Assembly: GCA_965203415.1 (NCBI GenBank)
Contig: CBDBCS010000006.1
Span: 1,502,531 to 1,566,530 of the forward strand
DNA from: Alphaproteobacteria bacterium
GTDB lineage: Bacteria > Pseudomonadota > Alphaproteobacteria > CBDBCS01
Direction of reading: 5' to 3'
Length of the DNA stretch: 64,000 nucleotides
Shown here: positions 5,813 to 48,182 of the stretch, one piece after another
How positions within the stretch are numbered: position 1 is the first letter of the stretch
How the letters are laid out: every line of letters begins with the position of its first letter
Translations under genes and position numbers: made by a program
Notes under the pieces: generated by a model
Database searches by the model: none
The model's input: only the letters and a program-made list of their open reading frames with translations
What the model was told of the DNA's origin: nothing

Positions 5813-7111
5813 TTAGTACCGGTAGTGGGCGGGCTTAAACGGGCCGTCGGGACTCTCGAGTCCGATATAGCGCGCCTGTTCCGCACTGAGCCGCGTCAGG
5901 CTTGCTCCGAGCTTTTCCAGATGCAACATGGCGACTTCTTCGTCGAGTTTTCTCGGGAGTTGATAGACTTGATTGTCGTACTGGTGGCCGCTCTGGAAGA
6001 GTTCTATCTGGGCCAAGACCTGGTTCGAGAAGCTGGTACTCATGACGAAACTGGGGTGGCCGGTCGCGCACCCTAAATTGACGAGGCGTCCCTCGGCCAA
6101 GAGCACCAGGCGTTTGCCGTCCGGGAAGACGATTTCGTCGACCTGAGGCTTGATATTGCGCCAGGTAAAATTGCGTAGAGCGTCCACTTGGATCTCGTTA
6201 TTAAAGTGGCCGATATTGCACACGACGGCCCCGTCGCGCATGGTACGCATGTGCTCCAGGCAGAGGACGTCCGTGTTCCCCGTGGCCGTGATGACAATAT
6301 CCGCGCGCGCGGCCGCTTGTTCGACGGTGACGACCTCATAGCCCTCCATCGCGGCCTGGAGGGCGCAAATCGGGTCTATTTCGCTGACGAGCACGCGGCA
6401 TCCGGCCTGTCTGAGCCCCGCCGCCGTTCCCTTGCCGACATCGCCATAGCCGCAGACGAGTGCTACTTTTCCCGCCATCATGAGGTCCGTCGCGCGCCGA
6501 AGAGCGTCCACGGCGGACTCGCGGCACCCGTAGATATTGTCAAATTTAGATTTTGTCACCGCATCGTTGACGTTGAAGGCAGGCACGCGGAGTTTTCCCT
6601 GTTTCGCCGCTTCATAGAGGCGCAAGACGCCTGTTGTGGTTTCCTCGGACAGGCCCCGGACGGCCTTGAGTCTGTCCGGATAGTCTTGATGCATCATCCA
6701 GGTGAGGTCTCCGCCGTCGTCTAGGATCATATTGGCCTCCCATGCGGGATTGCCTTCTATGGTTTGCCTCAGGCACCAGTCGTATTCGTCTTCGGTTTCG
6801 CCTTTCCACGCGAAGACAGGGACGCCGCGAACGGCGACGGCCGCCGCCGCCTGGTCCTGCGTCGAGAAGATATTGCACGACGACCATCGCACCTGAGCCC
6901 CTAAGGCCATGAGCGTCTCTATGAGAACGGCCGTCTGGACCGTCATATGAAGGCACCCTAGAATGCGGGCGCCCTCGAGAGGGCGTGTCTCTTGATAGCG
7001 GCGGCGCAACGCCATTAAACCGGGCATTTCCGGCTCGGCGAGTTCGATCTCGTGCCGGCCTCGGTCGGCTAGGGTGATATCCGCGACTTTATAATCCTGT
7101 TTCTGTGTCAT
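5813..7111 (-). CDS. ahcY: adenosylhomocysteinase
   Basis: The product runs from [36 protein letters not shown] to KPAHYRY with an NAD-binding GYGDVGKG motif. I chose the internal ATG at 7111 over the ORF-track start at 7270 because the extra 53 aa have no counterpart in AhcY. Confidence 0.95.
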
Positions 7112-7164
7112 GAGTGTTTTGACTCCTGTTGGTTCGTTATCAGGGCCCAAGAGGCCCCCAGCCT

Positions 7165-8886
7165 TTAGACTTGCGGCCCTTGCGAAAATTTTTTGCGAAA
7201 AAGCTCCCGTTGCTGCTGCGTCAGAGCCAAAGCCAGACGCCACCCCTGAGACCCAAGCGACTCGGCACACACCGCCCGCTGGCTATAGAGCCAAGAACGT
7301 GCTTTAGCGGCCTCCCACCCCAACTCCAGGACCATCCGGTATCTCGGGGGGGCCAGCAGAGCCTCGATGCGTTCCCCTAGCACGTCCAGCCCCCGGCCGT
7401 CAAGAGCCGAAACTTGAACGACAGGGCCTCCTGTGACGGGCTCTCCCGTGGTTTTTTCGCCCTCCGAGCCGTTCGTTTCACCCGTTTCAAGAGAGGCCAG
7501 GGCATCACACAGAGCATCATGAAGGGCATCTGTTTTATTCATGACCTCCAGCACGGGGGGTGTTTTTTGTCCTTCGAACAGGTCTTCCAGGACGTTGCGC
7601 ACGGTCTGTCTGTGCATAGCGTCAAACGGGTCGGTTGCGTCGCGCACCAGAAGAATCAACTCGGCGTATCGGGCTTCTTCCATGGTGGCGCGAAACGCCG
7701 CGAAAAGAGGCGGCGGTAAATGCCGGATAAAGCCGACCGTGTCTGAAAGTAGAATACATTTGCCTCCGGGAAGCCGGACGCGCGACAAACGCGGGTCGAG
7801 TGTCGCAAACGCCATATCGTCCACATAGGCCTGATGCCCGGCGAGTCGGTTGAAAAGGCTCGTTTTTCCGACATTCGTATAGCCGACGAGCGTCACAAGC
7901 GGATAAGGTAGGTTGCGTCGAGCTTGCCGTTGCACGTCACGCGTGCGCCGAATGCGCTGGAGACCCGTCCGACACGTTTTAATGCGTTGCTCGAGCAGGC
8001 GCCGGTCCAGTTCTATTTGGCGTTCGCCGGGGCCTCCGACGAAGTTTTGGCGGCCTCGCTGGCGTTCCAGATGGGTCCATTGCCGGACGAGGCGCGCTCG
8101 ACGCCAGGACAAACGCGCCAGCATCACCTGGAGTCGACCCTCGTGGGTGAGGGCTCTTGCCGCGAAAATCGCTAAAATGAGCTCCGTTCGCCCGAGGATG
8201 GGGCATTCGAGCTGCCGCTCCAGGTTTCTTTGCTCGGCGGGGGTGAGATCCTGACTGAAGACGATGCGTTGGGCTCGTTTTTCCTGGCACTGGTCTCGGA
8301 GGATCGCCACCTGGCCCTTCTGGAGCCGGACCGTGGAACGCCCCGGGGCTCGCCACGGGTTCGCTTCCCGCCCGCCTCGCCGCGGCGAGGGCGAGCGCGG
8401 ACAATAAGAACCGACCAATTCGCCGCCGTAAGAGCAGATCAGACTCTGCATTTCGGCTAGGACCTGGTCGAGCTCCATGCTTCTCAAGCTTTTCCGAGGC
8501 ACAAGACGCCCTGCAAAAGCGTGTCCGGTCGAACTCGCCGACCCCGTAGACGCCGCCGCACCGGAAAATCCGGGAGGCAAGTCAGCCGGGAAAGCCGAGA
8601 GGCCATCGGGTTCCCACGCCAGGCCGGCTGCCTCGGTTTCGGATGAGCCATGGGATGAGATATGTGTCGAATCGAAGCGTATCTCCGAGGGCATCCCGAA
8701 GGGGAGGTCCGCGGATAGGCGGCCTGGACTCGGCCCGGATGTCGCGCTTGTGGACGCGTGGCCCCTGGCAGGAACTGCTCCCGAAGGCGGCCTGAACCCG
8801 GCCCGGGAAACAAAAGAGCCAGCGGCGGCGCACACCAAAAAGACACGCTCGCGTTCTGTCTGGCCTGTTTGGCCGGCTTGGCTCAT
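7165..8886 (-). CDS. hflX: GTPase HflX with an enlarged low-complexity N-terminal insertion
   Basis: It has the HflX N-domain ([24 protein letters not shown]...WTHLERQRG) and the G motifs [17 protein letters not shown] and NKTD. I chose the ATG at 8886 ([18 protein letters not shown]...) because the 9045 start would overlap hfq. Confidence 0.85.
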
Positions 8887-8924
8887 TTTTCCCGGCGTTG
8901 TCGCCTTCGTCGTGAGGTCCGTGC

Positions 8925-8984
8925 CACAGTTCTGCCCCCGGCAGTTCTGCCCCCGGCAGTCCTGCCCCTGGCAGTTCTGCGCGC
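8925..8984. repeat. 15 bp x4 tandem repeat in the hfq-hflX spacer, each unit containing the self-complementary GGCAGTTCTGCC
   Basis: The units CACAGTTCTGCCCCC, GGCAGTTCTGCCCCC, GGCAGTCCTGCCCCT and GGCAGTTCTGCGCGC were read directly from the sequence. Confidence 0.85.
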
Positions 8985-8998
8985 GGGGGAGGGTGGGG

Positions 8999-9310
8999 TC
9001 AATAGCCCTCTTCGCCTTCGTAATAGTCCCCGCCGGCGTCCTCATCCTGTCCGGCGGCGGCGTCTCCCCGTGGCGGAGGGTCTATCTCCGTGTTCGACAA
9101 ATCGATGGGCTTATGCGGCATCACCGTCGAGATGGCGTGTTTATACACCAGCTGAAGCTGTATCTCTCGTTTCAAGAGAACCGTGTAGCTATCAAACCAC
9201 GTGACAATGCCCTGGAGTTTGACACCATTCACCAGAAAGATAGTCAGGAAGACTTTGTTCCTGCGGCACTCATTCAGAAAACTGTCCTGAAGGTTTGGTT
9301 TTTTTGTCAT
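8999..9310 (-). CDS. hfq: RNA chaperone Hfq with an acidic C-terminal tail
   Basis: The Sm1/Sm2 core is [40 protein letters not shown]...VYKHAISTV. It lies directly upstream of hflX. Confidence 0.95.
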
Positions 9311-9746
9311 GCTTATTCACCCCTGTTTGACAGACATCATTTTCGCGGACGTCACAGACGTCATCCTGCGTCATCTCGCATACATCCGTGGCATCTGGCA
9401 CAAAGACGGCTCGTTTGCGTGCCACCGCTCTCTCCCCGGGGCCCCAGAAAGGCCCAAAAAGCCGGAAGGACACAGACGCCAACGTGATAGGACTATCCTA
9501 AAGGCAAAATGAACAAAAAGCAAGCACTCCGGAGGAGCGGCCTCAAAAGAGCCGGAAGAGACCGTGAGACGAGCTCTGAAAGGCTGTTACGGTTTACAAC
9601 CAATTCGGATTATAATGTCCGGGTAAGCCGCCGATCAGGTTTTTGGGTGGCTCTGCGTTTCTTAAGAGGCTCTTGATTTTTTCAGTCTGGATTTTTCAAA
9701 CCGAATTTGCTATGAAATAGGGCGTAAAGAGGGCTTAAAACTGTCT

Positions 9747-9998
9747 ATGCCAATCGCATCATCTTTCGCATCATCTTTGACAGAGGACGAGGAATTGCGC
9801 CTGCCTTCCCCCTGCGTCGGCGTGTGTCGACTGGACGCGAACGACCATTGCCTGGGGTGTTTCCGCACCATAGACGAAATCCGAGAGTGGCCCAACGCCG
9901 ATCTCAACCGTCAATTGGCTATTCTGGACCAGCTTCGAGTGCGGCGGGTCTCGAACGGGGGGCGAGGGCGACGCTCTAATGCGCGCCGGAGAGGGTAG
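9747..9998 (+). CDS. DUF1289 domain-containing protein (YdhL-like)
   Basis: PSPCVGVCRLDANDHCLGCFRTIDEIREW is the characteristic DUF1289 cysteine motif. Confidence 0.75.
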   Translation: MPIASSFASSLTEDEELRLPSPCVGVCRLDANDHCLGCFRTIDEIREWPNADLNRQLAILDQLRVRRVSNGGRGRRSNARRRG

Positions 9999-41510: not shown

Positions 41511-42896
41511 TCAAGGAGCCCGCTCCAGAATTTTGGCAAGAGTCTCAAAATTGCCCGCCGCATCGGCGCGTTCATCGGGGCTCTGTTCGATAAATTTCTC
41601 GAGAGCCGGCTGATAGTGAATAGCTTTATCGATGGCGGGGTCCGACCCCTGCCTGTAGGCTCCCAGCTGTATGAGTTCGCGCATGCGCTCATAGGTCGCC
41701 ATGAGACTCAAGGCTCGGGCCAGCAGGTGGTTTTCGCGCTCGTGATTGCAGCGCGGCAGCGCCCTCGAGACCGACTTGAGAATATCAATCGCCGGGAAAC
41801 GACGGCGTTGCGCGATTTCTCTGGAAAGCATGATATGCCCGTCGAGGATGCCTCGCACCGCGTCCGAGATGGGTTCATTTTCGTCATCGCCCTCCACGAG
41901 GACCGTGAAGAGAGCCGTAATGTCGCCTTGCGTGCTTTTCTCCATGCCTGGCCCCGCCCGCTCGAGCAGATTGGGCAGAAGGGCGAATACCGTCGGCGTA
42001 TAGCCTCTGGAACTGGGCGGCTCGCCCGCCGAGAGCCCAATCTCGCGCTGAGCCATGGCAAAACGCGTCAGCGAGTCCATCAGCAAAAGGACGCTGGCTC
42101 CCTGGTCTCGGAAGTATTCGGCGACCGTCATCGCGGTGGTCGCCGCCAAACGCCGGGTGAGAGCCATTTCCTCGGCGGTCGAGACAATCGCAACGGTTCG
42201 TTTTTTGCCCGCTTCGCCCAGATGGACGTCCAGGAATTCTCGGACTTCGCGGCCGCGTTCTCCGATGAGCCCTAGGACGATGATATCGGCTCGGGCGAAT
42301 CGAGCAATCTGGCCGAGTAAAATGGACTTGCCGACCCCGCTGCCCGAGAAAATGCCCATGCGTTGGCCTCGGCAACACGGCGTGAACGTATCCAGAGCCC
42401 GAATCGAAAGCGGGAGTTTCGGCCCAAGAGGCCGCCTCTTTGCCGCCGCCGGTGGGGAAGACGCCAACACATAGTCTCTGGGGCCGTAAAGCAACGGCGG
42501 CCCGCCGTCTATTGCGCCTCCGAAGGCGTTGAGAACCCGCCCCAGCCACGTGGGATGCGGCCTCAAAGCAGGCGTGTGACGCTGGAGCGTCACACGCATC
42601 CCAGGCCCCACCCCGCCGAGGGGGCCATAGGGCAAAGCGAAAGCCGCCTCGTGTTCGATGGCGACGACCTCCAGGGCGAGGGGCGGGGCAGGCACCGAGG
42701 GTGCCGAGGGTGCTGAGGGCACCGGGGGCACCGAAGACCCCGGAGACCTGTGAGCGACGCATCGGTCTCCCAGACACACGAGAGGCGTTAGGCCTCGAAT
42801 TTCGACTGTATTGCCGCGCACGCCGGCCACCGACCCCACGATTTGGTGGGTTGGGATTTCCTCGATTTTGGCGCTTACAATATCAAAGAGACTCAT
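41511..42896 (-). CDS. fliI: flagellar/type III secretion export ATPase FliI/YscN family
   Basis: It has Walker A GIFSGSGVGKSILLG, Walker B VLLLMDSLTRFA and the motifs PPSRGYTPTVF and AIDILKSVSR. No other flagellar gene lies in the window. Confidence 0.85.
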   Translation of the reverse strand: MSLFDIVSAKIEEIPTHQIVGSVAGVRGNTVEIRGLTPLVCLGDRCVAHRSPGSSVPPVPSAPSAPSVPAPPLALEVVAIEHEAAFALPYGPLGGVGPGMRVTLQRHTPALRPHPTWLGRVLNAFGGAIDGGPPLLYGPRDYVLASSPPAAAKRRPLGPKLPLSIRALDTFTPCCRGQRMGIFSGSGVGKSILLGQIARFARADIIVLGLIGERGREVREFLDVHLGEAGKKRTVAIVSTAEEMALTRRLAATTAMTVAEYFRDQGASVLLLMDSLTRFAMAQREIGLSAGEPPSSRGYTPTVFALLPNLLERAGPGMEKSTQGDITALFTVLVEGDDENEPISDAVRGILDGHIMLSREIAQRRRFPAIDILKSVSRALPRCNHERENHLLARALSLMATYERMRELIQLGAYRQGSDPAIDKAIHYQPALEKFIEQSPDERADAAGNFETLAKILERAP

Positions 42897-43012: not shown

Positions 43013-43730
43013 ACAGACCAGGCAAGACAGGCCAGACAGGCCAGGCCAGACAGGCCAGGCCAGACAGGCCAGGCAAGACAGGCCAGGCAAGACAGGCCAG
43101 GCAAGACAGGCCAGGCAAGACAGGCAAGACAGGCCAGGCAAGACAGGCCAGGCAAGACAGGCCAGGTCAAGACAGGCCAGGTCAAGACAGGCCAGGTCAA
43201 GACAGGCCAGGTCAAGACAGGCCAGGTCAAGACAGGCCAGGTCAAGACAGCCCAGGTCAAGACAGGCCAGGTCAAGACAGCCCAGGCAAGACAGTCCAGG
43301 CAAGACAGCCCAGGTCAAGATAGCCCAGGCAAGACAGCCCAGGTCAAGACAGCCCAGGCAAGACAGGCCAGGCAAGACAGTCCAGGTCAAGACAGTCCAG
43401 GTCAAGACAGCCCAGGCAAGACAGGCCAGGCAAGACAGCCCAGGCAAGACAGCCCAGGTCAAGACAGCCCAGGCAAGACAGTCCAGGCAAGACAGCCCAG
43501 GTCAAGACAGGCCAGGCAAGACAGTCCAGGCAAGACAGCCCAGGTCAAGACAGCCCAGGCAAGACAGCCCAGGTCAAGACAGCCAGGCAAGACAGCCCAG
43601 GCAAGACAGCCCAGGCAAGACATGCCAGGCAAGACATGCCAGGCAAGACAGCCCAGGTCAAGACAGACCAGGCAAGACAGGCCAGGCAACACAGGCCAGG
43701 TCAAGACAGACCAGGTCAACACAGCCCAGC
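43013..43730. repeat. minisatellite array 1, about 49 units of GACAG[G/C/T]CCAGG(T)CAA (14 or 15 bp)
   Basis: Read directly from the sequence. Runs of the 14-mer GACAGGCCAGGCAA and the 15-mer GACAGGCCAGGTCAA are interleaved with single-base variants. Confidence 0.95.
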
Positions 43731-43772
43731 CCGAGTCGGCAGTCTGGCACAAGCGCGCTCGAAAAGCCACCC

Positions 43773-44137
43773 GGCTCCATCTACCTGGCTCCATCTACCT
43801 GGCTCCATCTCCCCGTCTCCATCTCCCCGTCTCCATCTACCTGGTTCCATCTACCTGGCTCCATCTACCCGGCTCCATCTACCTGGCTCCATCTACCCGG
43901 CTCCATCTACCTGGCTCCATCTACCCGGCTCCATCTACCTGGCTCCATCTACCTGGCTCCATCTACCCGGCTCCATCTACCTGGCTCCATCTACCTGGCT
44001 CCATCTAGCCGTCTCCATCTAGCCGTCTCCATCTAGCCGTCTCCATCTCCCCGTCTCCATCTCCCCGTCTCCATCTCCCCGTCTCCATCTATCCGGCTCC
44101 ATCTACCCGTCTCCATCTACCCGGCAAATCTACCCGG
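43773..44137. repeat. minisatellite array 2, about 26 units of 14 bp G[G/T]CTCCATCT[A/C][C/G]C[C/T]
   Basis: Read directly from the sequence. The unit variants are GGCTCCATCTACCT, GGCTCCATCTACCC, GTCTCCATCTCCCC and GTCTCCATCTAGCC. The array ends about 80 bp before the argB ATG. Confidence 0.95.
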
Positions 44138-44216
44138 CCAAAGCCCTCCTGTCCGGGTGGTTTCTCTGTCCCCGCTTGCCAGGCCCGAGACGGCCGTGCT
44201 ATGGGTGTTGGCTCGT

Positions 44217-45098
44217 ATGGCACGGACTCAACAACATTTGCGCTGGCTTGCGCGCGCGGGTCTCTTGAAAGAGATCCTGCCTTATATGCAGCGGCATAAG
44301 GGCCGTGTGGTCGTCGTCAAATACGGCGGAGCCGCCCTTAAAGAGGATGCGCTCGCCAATCATTTCGCGAGCGACATTGCGCTCTTGCATCAAGTCGGCA
44401 TCCGTCCCATCATCGTTCACGGCGGGGGGCCTCAAGTGACGGCTTTTTTGGAGCGTCTCACGATTGACTCGCACAAAATAGACGGCTTGCGCGCCACCAG
44501 TTCCGAGGCCATTCCCGTCGTTGAAATGGTGCTCTCGGGCCAGGTGAATCGCACCATTGTGACGGCGATCAATCAGGCGGGTGGCCAGGCCGTGGGGCTT
44601 TCGGGTCGCGATGGGAATTTAGCTCTGGCTCGTCCGCTCCGCAAGACGGCTCAGGGTCGAGCCATCGATCTGGGATTCGTCGGCGAGATCGATTCTGTAG
44701 AAACGGCTTTTTTGCAGCATCTCGTTCAGGCGGGTTATATCCCTGTTTTGGCGCCTCTGGCGCCCGATACGGCCGGGCGAGTCTATAACGTGAACGCCGA
44801 CGAAATGGCCCAAGCCGTCAGCTGCGCGATGAAGGCCGACCGACTCATTGTGCTCACCGACGTAGAGGGCGTGCTCGACGAAAGCGGCAAAATTCTGTTA
44901 GAGTTATCGCTCCAAGACTGTCGGAATTTGATAAACAGCGGCGTGGTTTCAGGTGGCATGCTCCCGAAGCTCCACACGTGCATGGCGGCGGTGGCCGCAG
45001 GCACCGGCGGAGCCGTGATTCTAGACGGGCGCGTGCAGCATTCTCTTTTGCTGGAGCTTTTCACGGACCTCGGTGCGGGCACGCTCATCCACGCCTAG
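44217..45098 (+). CDS. argB: acetylglutamate kinase
   Basis: VVVVKYGGAAL...IRPIIVHGGGPQV...YNVNADEMA are classic ArgB motifs. I chose the ATG at 44217. The ORF is open from a GTG at 44157. Confidence 0.9.
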   Translation: MARTQQHLRWLARAGLLKEILPYMQRHKGRVVVVKYGGAALKEDALANHFASDIALLHQVGIRPIIVHGGGPQVTAFLERLTIDSHKIDGLRATSSEAIPVVEMVLSGQVNRTIVTAINQAGGQAVGLSGRDGNLALARPLRKTAQGRAIDLGFVGEIDSVETAFLQHLVQAGYIPVLAPLAPDTAGRVYNVNADEMAQAVSCAMKADRLIVLTDVEGVLDESGKILLELSLQDCRNLINSGVVSGGMLPKLHTCMAAVAAGTGGAVILDGRVQHSLLLELFTDLGAGTLIHA

Positions 45099-45117
45099 GC
45101 CGGGCTCGACGGATTTT

Positions 45118-46698
45118 ATGCCGATTATTCTGCCCGTCGACCAAATGCAGGAGGCCGACCAGCGCGCGATTCGCGCCGGCACAAGCGGTATCGTGCTGAT
45201 GGCTCGAGCGGGGGTGCATGTCGGCCAGCATGCGGCAGAGATGCTCGCCGGTTGCGACCCGACGGTTGCGCCCGTTTTAGTCCTCTGCGGCCCGGGCAAA
45301 AACGGAGGCGATGGGTTCGTCGCCGCCCGCTGGCTTCAGGAACACCGTTTTCCCGTTCGAGTCGCCTTTCTGGGCGTGCCGGAGGCCCTCGTGGGGGAGA
45401 CGGCGCATCATGCGTCGCTCTGGCGTGGGCCGACGGTGCCTCTGACGTTGGATGGCGTGCGTTTTTCGCGCACCGAGGCCCCGTCTTCCGACGGTTGGGC
45501 TCTTGTGATAGACGCTCTTTTTGGCATCGGGCTGACGCGGCCGCTTGGGACGCACGTTCAGACCGTCCTCGATAGCCTGAGCGACCATCGGGTTTTGGCC
45601 GTGGACCTCCCGAGCGGGGTGCGCGGCGACGACGGGCAACTCGAGGGCCGCCCGCTCCAGGCCGAGCGGACGGTCACCTTTGTGCGCCATAAACCGGGGC
45701 ATATTTTTCCGCCAGGCCGCGAGCTGTGTGGCTCGATTCGCCTGGTCGACATCGGCATAGAGGCCCGGCATCTCGAGGCTCTGCCGGATGTGGTTTACGT
45801 CAACCAGCCCCCCGTGGTCCGCCTGCCCGCATGGGACGACCACAAATACCGCCGAGGTATCGCCAGCTTTGTCCTAGGACGCTACCCGGGCGCGAGCCTG
45901 CTGGCCGCTCGAGCCTGCGCAAATGCAGGGTGTGGCCTCGTTCGTCTCTACGGAACCCCAGACCAGGCGGTGCTGGCGCATCTAGGGGCTCCTTTTGCAA
46001 CCTTTGAAACGCTGGAAACGCTTTGGAAGACGGACGCCCGGGCGTCCTTGTCGTCTTCTCCGCCCAGTGTTTATCGAGAGGCCCTCGTGCTGGGGAGCGG
46101 CTGGGATGCCGCCCCGTTTCTGCCCGAGATGGTGGCTCGGCTTCTTCGCACGAACCGGACGTGCATTTTGGACGGCGGCGTCTTTCACGCCTTTAGCGGG
46201 CGTTGGGCCGAGCTCGCCGAGCTCTGTGCGGCCGCGGCGCGGCCGGTGATTCTGACCCCGCACGCCGGTGAGTTCGCTCGACTGACAGGCGAGACGCAAA
46301 AAGGCGACCTTTTGGCTCTGGCGCGTCTTTGGTCCGGGAAACTGAAGGCGATTTTAGTCCTCAAAGGCGCGGTTCCGATTATTGCGCACCCTGGCGGGCG
46401 GCTGATCGTCCAGCTGGAGGCGCCTCCGCGTTTGGCTCAGGGAGGCTCGGGCGATCTATTGACGGGCCTCATTGCCTCGCGGCTGCTGGACGCCCCGGAG
46501 GATGCGGCGGGCCTGGCTGGAACAACCTTGGCTGGGACATGCGGCGGCGTCTGGCTGCATAACGAGGCGGCACGCTTGATGCCGCCGTGGCTTCATGTGG
46601 CTCATTTGCCGGATTATGTGCCTCAAGCTCTGTCTCGAGCCACGGCGGAGGCCGCCCCGCCCCCTGCCTCATCTCCCGGGGCCCCCGTGGCACGATGA
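45118..46698 (+). CDS. nnr: bifunctional NAD(P)H-hydrate epimerase / ADP-dependent dehydratase
   Basis: The N-terminal YjeF_N part reads MPIILPVDQMQEADQ...VLCGPGKNGGDGFV. The C-terminal carbohydrate-kinase-like part reads HKYRRG...GSGDLLTG. Confidence 0.85.
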   Translation: MPIILPVDQMQEADQRAIRAGTSGIVLMARAGVHVGQHAAEMLAGCDPTVAPVLVLCGPGKNGGDGFVAARWLQEHRFPVRVAFLGVPEALVGETAHHASLWRGPTVPLTLDGVRFSRTEAPSSDGWALVIDALFGIGLTRPLGTHVQTVLDSLSDHRVLAVDLPSGVRGDDGQLEGRPLQAERTVTFVRHKPGHIFPPGRELCGSIRLVDIGIEARHLEALPDVVYVNQPPVVRLPAWDDHKYRRGIASFVLGRYPGASLLAARACANAGCGLVRLYGTPDQAVLAHLGAPFATFETLETLWKTDARASLSSSPPSVYREALVLGSGWDAAPFLPEMVARLLRTNRTCILDGGVFHAFSGRWAELAELCAAAARPVILTPHAGEFARLTGETQKGDLLALARLWSGKLKAILVLKGAVPIIAHPGGRLIVQLEAPPRLAQGGSGDLLTGLIASRLLDAPEDAAGLAGTTLAGTCGGVWLHNEAARLMPPWLHVAHLPDYVPQALSRATAEAAPPPASSPGAPVAR

Positions 46699-48008
46699 GC
46701 CAGGTGCCCGCCTCGAGGGTCTCTTCCGGGGCCGCCTCCGGGGCCTCGCCGAACCTTCGGAACAGGACGATCTTTTGCCACGATAACCTAGAGGTCCTCC
46801 AGGGCATCAATTCGGCTTGCGTCGACCTGATCTACATGGACCCGCCTTTCAACAAAAAGAAAGTCTTCACCGCGCCGATCGGGAGTAGTGCCGAGGGGGC
46901 CTCTTTCAGCGATATCTTCCGAGAAGAGGACGTCAAAGGCGAGTGGCTCCAGACCCTCAAAGAGGACGAAGACGCCGTCTATGGCTTTTTGATGGGCATC
47001 CGGAACCACGGGAATACGTATAATTTTTGTTATTTGGCCTATATGGCGATCCGGCTCCTGGCGTGTCGGCGCATTTTGAAACCGACTGGGAGTCTCTATT
47101 TGCACTGCGACCCGACCATGTCGCATTATTTGAAAATCCTCTTGGATGGTATCTTCGGCGAACAAAACTTTAGGAATGAACTGATATGGAGCTACCAAAC
47201 CGGGGGCTCAAGCAAAAAATGGTTCGGGAGGAAACACGATACGGTGTTGTTTTACTCTAAAACAGGGGGGTATCACATCGACCTCTATAAGGTGAAAGAG
47301 CCGCGCTCCGAGAAAAGCCTCAAAAGAGCCAAAAATCCAAAAGGCTCGAGGTTTAATCTGGCCGAAAATGAGCTTCGTCTCCCGAACGATGTCTGGCACC
47401 TTCAAGCCTTAAACGCCATGTCTAAAGAGCGCACTGGTTATCCGACTCAAAAGCCTGTGGCGTTGCTGGAGCGCGTACTCCAGGCCAGCTGCCCCGAGGG
47501 CGGTCTGGTTCTGGACCCGTTTTGCGGCTGTGCCACGACCTGCATCGCCGCAGAAAAACTGGGGAGACAATGGGTCGGCATCGACGTCATCTCTAAAACC
47601 TTTGAGCTCGTCAAGAAGCGTCTCCTTGAAGAGGTCGCCGAGTGCAAAGAACTGTTTGACACGGAGAAAGATGTCTTTTTCCGCACAAAACCCCCTATGC
47701 GCACAGACAAAGGCGCAAACGAAAGAGAACAGAAATACGTCTATGTCGTCTCGAACGAGGCCTATGACGGTCTGTATAAAGTCGGCATTGCCTCGGATGT
47801 GAAGCACCGGCTCGGCAGTTATCAGACGAGCGACCCGCATCGGGGGTATCGGCTCGAGTGTGCCCGCCTCACGCCGCATTTCCGGGCGCTCGAGAAGCAC
47901 ATCCACAGGCGTTTTGACGCACGCCACGAATGGGTCAGAGCCAAACTGGACGCCATCCGAGAAGCCCTCGAGACCTATCCCGAGACCTATGAAAACCCCG
48001 ACCCTTGA
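46695..48008 (+). CDS. beta-class N6/N4 DNA methyltransferase fused to a C-terminal T5orf172 (GIY-YIG superfamily) domain
   Basis: Motif IV DLIYMDPPFNKKK precedes YPTQKPVALLERVL and motif I VLDPFCGCATTCIAAEKLGRQWVGID. The C-terminal part is KYVYVVSNEAYDGLYKVGIASDVKHRLGSYQTS...LEKHIHRRFDARHEWV. The ATG overlaps the nnr stop as ATGA. Confidence 0.8.
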   Translation: MSQVPASRVSSGAASGASPNLRNRTIFCHDNLEVLQGINSACVDLIYMDPPFNKKKVFTAPIGSSAEGASFSDIFREEDVKGEWLQTLKEDEDAVYGFLMGIRNHGNTYNFCYLAYMAIRLLACRRILKPTGSLYLHCDPTMSHYLKILLDGIFGEQNFRNELIWSYQTGGSSKKWFGRKHDTVLFYSKTGGYHIDLYKVKEPRSEKSLKRAKNPKGSRFNLAENELRLPNDVWHLQALNAMSKERTGYPTQKPVALLERVLQASCPEGGLVLDPFCGCATTCIAAEKLGRQWVGIDVISKTFELVKKRLLEEVAECKELFDTEKDVFFRTKPPMRTDKGANEREQKYVYVVSNEAYDGLYKVGIASDVKHRLGSYQTSDPHRGYRLECARLTPHFRALEKHIHRRFDARHEWVRAKLDAIREALETYPETYENPDP

Positions 48009-48182
48009 GACGACCTCGATGCAGAGCCGCGTCGAATCCCGCCTCCCCCCCATAGGAGGCATGGGGCTCTCGGGGTTTCGGCAGAGGGACCTTTTCTCTT
48101 TTTTTCTGTTCCTGTTTTGGTTTTTTTCGGGCTCTCGTCTAGTTTTCTTGGGCCTCCGGCCTATAGGCATGAGGATTGCCAA

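Follow-up and report, generated by a model that had tools for sequence, protein, structure and literature searches.

Type IIC/IIG enzymes (the MmeI family, BpuSI and Eco57I) carry a nuclease and a methylase in one chain on one specificity module; their frames are similar and their recognition segments divergent, their restriction and modification specificities change together, and many copies can occur in one genome, up to 20 in Borrelia (PMC4081073). The shared specificity module is the accepted explanation of the wide divergence in Type IIG enzymes, the MmeI family among them (PMC4081073). Here we analysed a 64,000-nucleotide stretch of DNA (the window) from an alphaproteobacterial assembly (GCA_965203415.1, contig CBDBCS010000006.1), in which a single gene joins a beta-class DNA methylase to a C-terminal T5orf172/GIY-YIG-like domain. 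We propose that the gene encodes a self-contained, single-polypeptide restriction-modification (R-M) enzyme, built so that a single swappable target-recognition segment (TRD) serves both methylase and nuclease. The probability of this reading is put at about one half and no higher, because we infer its catalytic steps (adenine methylation, DNA cleavage and the coupling of cleavage to the TRD), together with the role in defence, from comparative evidence.

The resemblance of the window protein to Type IIC/IIG enzymes is at the level of domain composition. In those enzymes an N-terminal PD-(D/E)XK nuclease is combined with a gamma-class (NPPY/F/W) methylase and with an S module that is C-terminal or separate, over a length of ~900-1000 amino acids (aa) (PMC4081073). 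They cleave in a site-dependent manner, usually with stimulation by S-adenosylmethionine. The window protein, in contrast, has a beta-class DPPF motif, an internal TRD of ~80 aa, a C-terminal T5orf172 domain with predicted cleavage activity, and a length of 437 aa. The window protein falls outside Type IIC/IIG because the defining layout of N-terminal PD-(D/E)XK nuclease and gamma-class methylase is absent, but these enzymes would be its nearest analogues in function. The atypical Type IIC enzyme BtgZI has the same order of modules, with the methylase N-terminal and the nuclease C-terminal in one chain, but its methylase is alpha-class and its nuclease is of the PD-(D/Q)XK type (PMC4081073).

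For the T5orf172 domain, the closest described protein is Odn (Gp88) of phage ICP1, where T5orf172 is joined to a borrowed DNA-binding domain; Odn cleaves its target in vitro and in vivo and is inactive as the E180A variant (PMC8263062). In Odn, as presumably in the window protein, a C-terminal T5orf172 domain is aimed by an unrelated N-terminal recognition module (PMC8263062), and the catalytic Arg and Glu of Odn align with R372 and E400 of the window protein. However, Odn is a phage anti-satellite weapon with a RepA_N replication-initiator targeting domain and no methylase, and the similarity is remote (hhalign E ~1e-3). Phage T5orf172 proteins are regarded more widely as modular endonucleases with exchanged DNA-binding modules; the homing endonucleases among them are free-standing and carry CapR, DUF723 or DUF4397 Zn-finger repeats (PMC10448857), and no such Pfam domain is present in the window protein. 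In DnmA-YeeB-YeeC, a suspected defence system, an N6-methyladenine (m6A) methylase is likewise functionally linked to a T5orf172/GIY-YIG protein (PMC9973331), but through three separate genes that include a superfamily 2 (SF2) helicase; here the two functions are fused, and a helicase neighbour is neither present in the window nor conserved among relatives.

Iyer, Aravind and colleagues placed T5orf172 among the nuclease domains of N6A restriction-modification systems, and the association of a methylase with T5orf172 was therefore anticipated in general terms. No description of the fusion itself or of its arrays was found in the literature on T5orf172, on R-M systems of sponge symbionts or on nuclease fusions, and no family member has a solved structure in the Protein Data Bank (PDB). 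The view, taken in an original prediction made from the sequence of the window, that no member with this architecture has been characterised agrees with what was found in the PDB, in phage and plasmid records and in the T5orf172 literature.

Domain layout and methylase class

The gene is an intact open reading frame (ORF) of 437 aa plus stop. PF01555 (N6_N4_Mtase) matches aa 43-307 (E 6.2e-45, 154 bits against a cut-off of 26.7) and PF10544 (T5orf172) aa 348-423 (E 7e-11, 43 bits against 20), and PF13455 (MUG113) matches the same protein (E 1.1e-7, 32.7 bits against 22.3), so that all three exceed the curated gathering cut-offs. The methylase motifs stand in a permuted order, with DPPF (aa 49-52) followed by a variable block (166-245), YPTQKP (249-254) and VLDPFCGCATT (272-282). 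Both the fusion and this beta-class order of DPPF, YPTQKP and SAM motif had been recognised in the original prediction, and both hold. Conservation across the family is high: DPPF, H137 and D139 are kept in 150/150 members, and the YPTQKP and S-adenosylmethionine (AdoMet) motifs in 149-150 of 150.

In PADLOC the methylase scores higher as MTase_II (1e-56) than as MTase_III (2.5e-34), and its best PDB relatives by sequence and by predicted fold are M.BceJIV, M.RsrI and M.MboIIA, all Type II beta-class enzymes. These three are also the best matches over aa ~110-310 (Foldseek E 7e-18 to 1e-14) and have the same permuted motif order, but lack a C-terminal nuclease domain and are just 23-26% identical. 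For the methylase model, Foldseek gave 7e-18 with M.BceJIV and 2e-17 with M.RsrI, with template-modelling (TM) scores to the target of 0.68-0.77. The methylase is thus closest to the Type II beta-class and not specifically Mod-like, and its earlier description as resembling Type III Mod rather than CcrM was imprecise. Two more specific assignments were rejected: CcrM, for which the NF050803 equivalog model gave 70 bits against a cut-off of 830, and Type III Mod, given the weaker MTase_III score and the lack of an adjacent Res helicase-nuclease (the neighbours are nnr and coxB). Because of the DPPF motif and because the nearest solved relatives are N6-adenine enzymes, the methylated base is probably m6A.

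The methylase gene follows argB and nnr and precedes coxB, coxA and ctaB, and no Res, restriction endonuclease or specificity gene lies near it in the window. This absence of a partner between nnr and the cox operon, as well as the overlap of the start codon with the nnr stop, had been pointed out before and was borne out; no partner gene is conserved in relatives either. The label 'orphan' overstates the case, in that it presupposes that the C-terminal domain is not itself the restriction partner. All ORFs of 90 aa or more that lie up to 6 kb from the fusion genes were clustered; no gene family was common to more than two loci, and the flanks consist of unrelated housekeeping genes. Since no flanking family recurs beside the fusions in more than two loci, the unit is a single autonomous gene.

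According to the mechanism that we propose, the beta-class core would read a short DNA sequence through its embedded ~80-aa TRD and methylate the host chromosome at that sequence, the product probably being N6-methyladenine. The C-terminal T5orf172 nuclease, tethered to the same TRD, would cut or nick beside bound unmethylated sites, such as those of incoming phage or foreign DNA. With one TRD serving both restriction and modification, replacement of the TRD would shift the two specificities together and would not be lethal. A TRD shared in this way would explain both the exchange of TRD cassettes in a conserved frame and the existence of arrays of 3-8 copies, which are described below.

Recognition segment, C-terminal domain and tandem arrays

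In an alignment of 27 family members (A1), aa ~166-245 are hypervariable in sequence and in length, and the methylase core and T5orf172 frame are strongly conserved. The position of the hypervariable block is that in which beta-class enzymes carry their TRD. The median identity to the window protein across the family is 64% in the frame and 24% in the TRD, and 150 unique sequences fall into 72 TRD clusters at 50% identity. The close relative P0002 shares 93% identity with the window protein over the frame but 33% over the TRD, whereas P0004 and P0005 are 63% identical in the frame and 66% in the TRD (P numbers denote proteins of relatives, and L numbers their contigs or loci). From these identities it follows that TRDs have been exchanged between frames, and that the window lineage has taken part in this exchange.

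Five indirect lines (the activity of Odn, the alignment with Odn, residue conservation, the predicted model and the sister methylases) agree in suggesting that the C-terminal domain is a nuclease. The key residues of the domain are Y350, K362 and G364 in YKVG, R372 (47808-47810), E400 (47892-47894), H404, E412 and W413. In an hhalign comparison of a subfamily profile (A3) with Odn, R372 is placed opposite R148 and E400 opposite E180. Among the 150 unique members, Y350, G364, E412 and W413 are present in all, H404 in 149, and K362, R372 and E400 in 148 each. The AlphaFold2 (AF2) model of the domain has a predicted local distance difference test (pLDDT) score of 84 and a b-b-a-b-a-b-b-a topology, with a beta-beta-alpha-beta-alpha core. 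The expectation that an Arg and a Glu matching the catalytic residues are retained is upheld, but the equivalent of the Odn Glu is E400 in LEKHIH, and not only the Glu of HEWV.

Sister methylases offer a further comparison. Ten that lack T5orf172 and are 40-47% identical (from Poribacteria, Dehalococcoidia and others) were inspected at their C-termini: an HNH domain exceeds the Pfam cut-off in eight, a ninth ends in a weakly Mrr_cat-like tail, and the tenth has nothing there. The HNH domains have intact DH...N...N motifs. Nucleases of unrelated fold that occupy one and the same place in a homologous frame suggest that selection has kept nuclease chemistry, not one particular fold. The idea of a single-chain R-M enzyme, put forward in the original prediction, has in this way gained comparative support from the swapping of the TRD in a conserved frame and from the HNH domain at the same position in sisters, with the nuclease activity itself still a prediction.

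Two side observations concern the C-terminal domains. The only relative from a named, apparently cultured organism, Sphingomonas sp. PB2P12 (L079 8001-9506), has the same methylase frame with another C-terminal tail, which shows weak similarity to Mrr_cat/NA-iREase1 below the Pfam cut-offs. The nearest T5orf172 domains outside methylase fusions (P0121, P0122 and P0124) include tandem double T5orf172 proteins of 627 and 773 aa; one of the three has 274 aa, with two T5orf172-like stretches by phmmer (one by Pfam) followed by an HNH motif.

Several points weigh against a single-chain R-M enzyme. The best PDB fold neighbours of the T5orf172 model are GIY-YIG proteins (1zg2 UPF0213, Slx1 and HIGLE), but the Foldseek matches are non-significant (E 0.25-3, TM 0.39-0.53). 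A profile search of the PDB with the C-terminal domain returned nothing relevant, PADLOC matches this domain only to the uncharacterised candidate family PDC-S57, and its alignment with Odn by hhalign is of modest strength (E 9.7e-4, probability 22%). The protein, at ~420 aa, is far smaller than known combined R-M enzymes and is without their layout of N-terminal PD-(D/E)XK nuclease and gamma-class methylase. TRD swapping on its own is no proof of a coupled nuclease, because it would be equally harmless for a solitary methylase. Lastly, membership of the fold is no guarantee of catalysis, since an endonuclease of this kind (PLE/CapR) is reported to have been domesticated as a DNA-binding regulator (10.1101/2020.11.28.402263).

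The same possible precedent leads to an alternative, which we regard as unlikely, in which the protein is a solitary methylase and T5orf172 a non-cutting module for DNA binding, dimerisation or regulation, comparable to the C-terminal domain of CcrM or to CapR. In that case the role of the gene would simply be to place an m6A mark, whether for epigenetic control or as cross-protection in a dense community rich in restriction systems. This would be compatible with the lack of a significant structural match to an active GIY-YIG nuclease, with the absence from T5orf172 of the first-helix His/Tyr found in most GIY-YIG nucleases (PMC8263062), and with the location of the gene inside a housekeeping operon, translationally coupled to nnr. 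However, the Arg and Glu that align with Odn are near-invariant, and domesticated binders usually lose such residues; an intact HNH domain at the same position in sisters is also hard to explain by binding alone. Should the nuclease be inactive, the protein would be no more than a solitary methylase of the ordinary kind that bears an accessory domain, and the family would be of interest mainly for its arrays and TRD swapping.

In many genomes the fusion gene occurs in head-to-tail arrays. Three copies were found in L001, three in L004 (the third interrupted), six in L005, five directly abutting in L084, and eight full copies with two truncated ones in L083. Within arrays, the first ~400 nt of the gene, the last ~500 nt (including T5orf172) and the spacers are 97-100% identical in DNA, whereas the central ~450 nt, which encode the TRD, are 14-50% identical. 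The six copies in L005 fall into six distinct TRD clusters, and the methylase motifs and T5orf172 residues are kept in every array copy. These patterns point to a gene that multiplies in tandem, with its arms homogenised while the TRDs stay different. Phase-variable Type I hsdS and Type III mod genes also diversify specificity by TRD exchange between conserved arms, but there a single expressed gene is switched between cassettes that are otherwise silent. Here, in contrast, every array copy is complete and intact, and all specificities would be expressed together.

Arrays end in a spacer followed by a truncated 5' fragment of another copy (L005 15084-15200, L012 10801-10910), and these end fragments may be the footprint of array growth or shrinkage. 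Upstream junctions are unalike across loci, and neither flanking repeats nor target-site duplications were found there, the only repeats being the within-array spacers and the terminal 5' remnant; a mobile unit bounded by repeats or target-site duplications was rejected on this account. In the eight-copy array of L083, a truncated methylase fragment (143-150 aa) occurs twice (5866-7210 and 8594-9939), each time followed by the gene of an unrelated class-I SAM methyltransferase (Methyltransf_11, 272 aa); the arrangement looks like the insertion of foreign DNA into array units that were later duplicated along with it. One Spirochaetia chromosome of 1,881,732 bp (L001, L013 and L019) has at least five T5orf172-type copies at two loci and one HNH-type copy at a third. 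HNH-type sisters are also found in tandem arrays with near-identical ends and different centres (L017 1-3441, L039 6427-12050).

The arrays bring in another improbable alternative, namely that the solitary methylase is cargo and T5orf172 a selfish or recombinogenic nuclease, which breaks family copies and so drives conversion, duplication, TRD capture and spread. The methylase would then be useful for epigenetic marking or for protection from the restriction systems of neighbours, and would not be half of an R-M pair. Phage T5orf172 proteins are regarded as homing endonucleases of modular build, which lie at recombination boundaries and exchange domains through homology (PMC10448857), and in one close T5orf172 relative an HNH motif is attached, as is typical of homing endonucleases. 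The near-identity of array arms and spacers implies ongoing gene conversion, the truncated 5' copies at the ends of the L005 and L012 arrays fit such a process, the gene is spread over several phyla (50-65% identity) without any integrase or transposase having been seen beside it, and the window gene has a GC content below that of its flanks. Against this, T5orf172 is present in all 150 full-length members and co-diverges with the frame, whereas typical homing endonuclease genes come and go, and the sole apparent close relative without T5orf172 is a frameshifted contig. The window copy has been stable in place, under purifying selection, across ~10% DNA divergence; HNH-type sisters form the same arrays, which makes the arrays independent of T5orf172; and no defined homing site is evident. 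The family was also not found in cultured phage records, in plasmid records or among the top IMG/VR matches.

A methylation-coupled nicking or repair factor, which like MutH would nick the unmethylated strand at hemimethylated sites, was likewise suggested at the outset, and we consider it very improbable. Some GIY-YIG enzymes do act in repair (UvrC is in the Odn alignment set (PMC8263062) and Slx1 is among the weak fold matches), and the gene has a housekeeping context. But such a factor does not predict so many kinds of TRD (72 or more), arrays with as many as 8 specificities, spread across phyla or replacement by HNH, and no repair genes are conserved near the fusion loci.

If, as proposed for the single-chain R-M enzyme, the nuclease is active and guided by the TRD, the family would represent a new architecture of combined R-M enzyme at less than half the size of the MmeI type. 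More speculatively, and with long odds in our judgement, the fusions and their HNH sisters could form an unrecognised class of compact (~420 aa) 'plug-and-play' R-M enzymes, made of a beta-class frame, a swappable TRD and an interchangeable nuclease, in self-homogenising arrays of up to eight specificities, where the nuclease both restricts and promotes gene conversion or cassette capture. In effect, sponge symbionts belonging to different phyla would then draw, by horizontal exchange, on one natural library of specificities. The TRD types, at least 72 among 150 sequences, would offer new specificities for methylation and cleavage, as well as a simple scaffold on which to study DNA reading by a small TRD, and the arrays, with identical arms and unrelated TRDs, provide a directly testable model of how defence could diversify while avoiding lethal intermediates.

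Distribution and history of the gene

The best 120 protein matches are 53-94% identical to the window protein and 409-494 aa long, and all save one fragment contain both PF01555 and PF10544. More than 120 relatives, at 55-94% identity, have this architecture. A scan of species-representative genomes gave 592 relatives. Full-length fusions at 48-59% identity were found in metagenome-assembled genomes (MAGs) labelled Spirochaetia, Leptonemataceae, Flammeovirgaceae/Cytophagales, Arenicellales, Cellvibrionales, and Alpha- and Gammaproteobacteria. The window gene is therefore no singular oddity but an ordinary-looking single copy of a large family. The family stands out because it combines a swappable TRD with C-terminal nucleases that can replace one another and with an organisation in tandem arrays, in bacteria associated with sponges.

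The wider set of relatives has mostly sponge-specific taxon names, such as Poribacteria, Poriferihabitaceae and Porisulfidus. Among the fusion-bearing MAGs, GM7GCV1 comes from Lamellodysidea, and APA_bin_81 has a sister bin of the same study series, APA_bin_87, from Aplysina aerophoba. The family is mostly concentrated in sponge-associated MAGs of several phyla, and from gene order and relatives we infer that the window organism is a sponge associate as well. Enrichment in R-M systems is known from sponge-associated communities (PMC11410982). That the family is concentrated in sponge MAGs across phyla bears on this richness and on the movement of defence genes within a host-associated community. 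A phage or plasmid origin was rejected after searches in which no fusion with at least 80% protein coverage was present among 50,697 phage or 72,556 plasmid records and none of the top 80 IMG/VR matches reached past aa 388.

The GC content inside the methylase gene is 0.48-0.56, compared with 0.60-0.68 in the flanks (nnr and upstream), which suggests a foreign origin and, for the window copy, horizontal acquisition. In contig L082, from a close relative, the order argB-nnr-methylase-coxB-coxA-ctaB and the ATGA junction are the same, and the DNA is 90-91% identical throughout. The window gene thus appears to be a resident single copy, kept vertically after its acquisition. The ratio of nonsynonymous to synonymous substitution rates (dN/dS) against L082 comes to 0.14 over the whole gene. 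By segment it is 0.05 and 0.09 in the two halves of the methylase, 0.15 in the TRD and 0.16 in T5orf172; in the neighbours argB, nnr and coxB it is 0.18-0.25. Given the low values in the methylase and in T5orf172, both domains are under purifying selection.

The contig L166 (4427 bp, from sample ERZ25068803 like L082) is a noisier version of the same locus, in which nnr is split in two and the methylase is frameshifted; the 72 gaps over 3 kb relative to the window reflect either a co-occurring strain or assembly error. P0003 (322 aa, 87% identical, PF01555 only) was considered as a natural relative without T5orf172 and rejected, because it is encoded on this frameshifted, noisy contig and the T5orf172 coding sequence is present there in another frame.

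Features of the locus

The features of the gene and its immediate surroundings are collected in Table 1. The N-terminal extension (aa 1-19) is not conserved across the family in A1. The hairpin downstream of the gene may close an argB-nnr-methylase transcription unit, and in keeping with it there is weak evidence that the methylase may be co-transcribed with nnr.

Table 1. Features of the methylase-T5orf172 gene and adjoining sequence, in window positions
Feature	Position	Strand	Basis
Whole gene, beta-class methyltransferase with T5orf172	46695..48008	+	ORF; Pfam; dN/dS 0.14 against the L082 orthologue
ATGA overlap of methylase start and nnr stop (TGA)	46695..46698	+	Sequence; same junction in L082
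GC-rich, lineage-specific N-terminal extension, aa 1-19	46695..46751	+	Shared only by P0001 and P0002; pLDDT <50; dN/dS 0.34
N-terminal catalytic half of methylase, aa 20-165, with DPPF (46839-46850) and HCDPTMSHYLK	46752..47189	+	Conservation; dN/dS 0.05
Hypervariable target-recognition segment (TRD), aa ~166-245	47190..47429	+	Variable block in A1
C-terminal half of methylase, aa 246-315, with YPTQKP (47439-47456) and AdoMet motif VLDPFCGCATTC (47508-47543)	47430..47639	+	Within PF01555 match
Linker with RTD motif, aa 316-345	47640..47729	+	pLDDT ~62; R336, T337 and D338 invariant in A1
T5orf172/GIY-YIG-like domain, aa 346-428	47730..47978	+	PF10544; Odn alignment; conservation; AF2 model
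Terminator-like hairpin followed by T-rich tract, ~65 nt past the stop	48072..48093	+	Consensus scan only; tract conserved in L082
nnr (YjeF_N and Carb_kinase), context, outside the system	45073..46698	+	Pfam

Several minor observations concern the rest of the window. The single match to Rfam is a tRNA. Two adjacent tandem-repeat arrays with a 14-bp unit, CAGGCAAGACAGGC x49 (43028-43729) and ACCCGGCTCCATCT x26 (43769-44138), sit between a gene for an ATPase of the type III secretion system (T3SS)/flagellar type and argB, and make long spurious ORFs on both strands. The repeat block is missing from the otherwise collinear L082, which has ~85 bp at that position. The ORF beside the block (41511-42896, minus strand) was assigned to the T3SS/flagellar-type ATPase (ATP-synt_ab and T3SS_ATPase_C) by collinearity with L082. 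Small genomes with a T3SS have been reported for sponge Alphaproteobacteria, Ca. Methylospongiales (PMC7313196). P0002, the close relative of the methylase, is encoded on a contig of 1.79 Mb.

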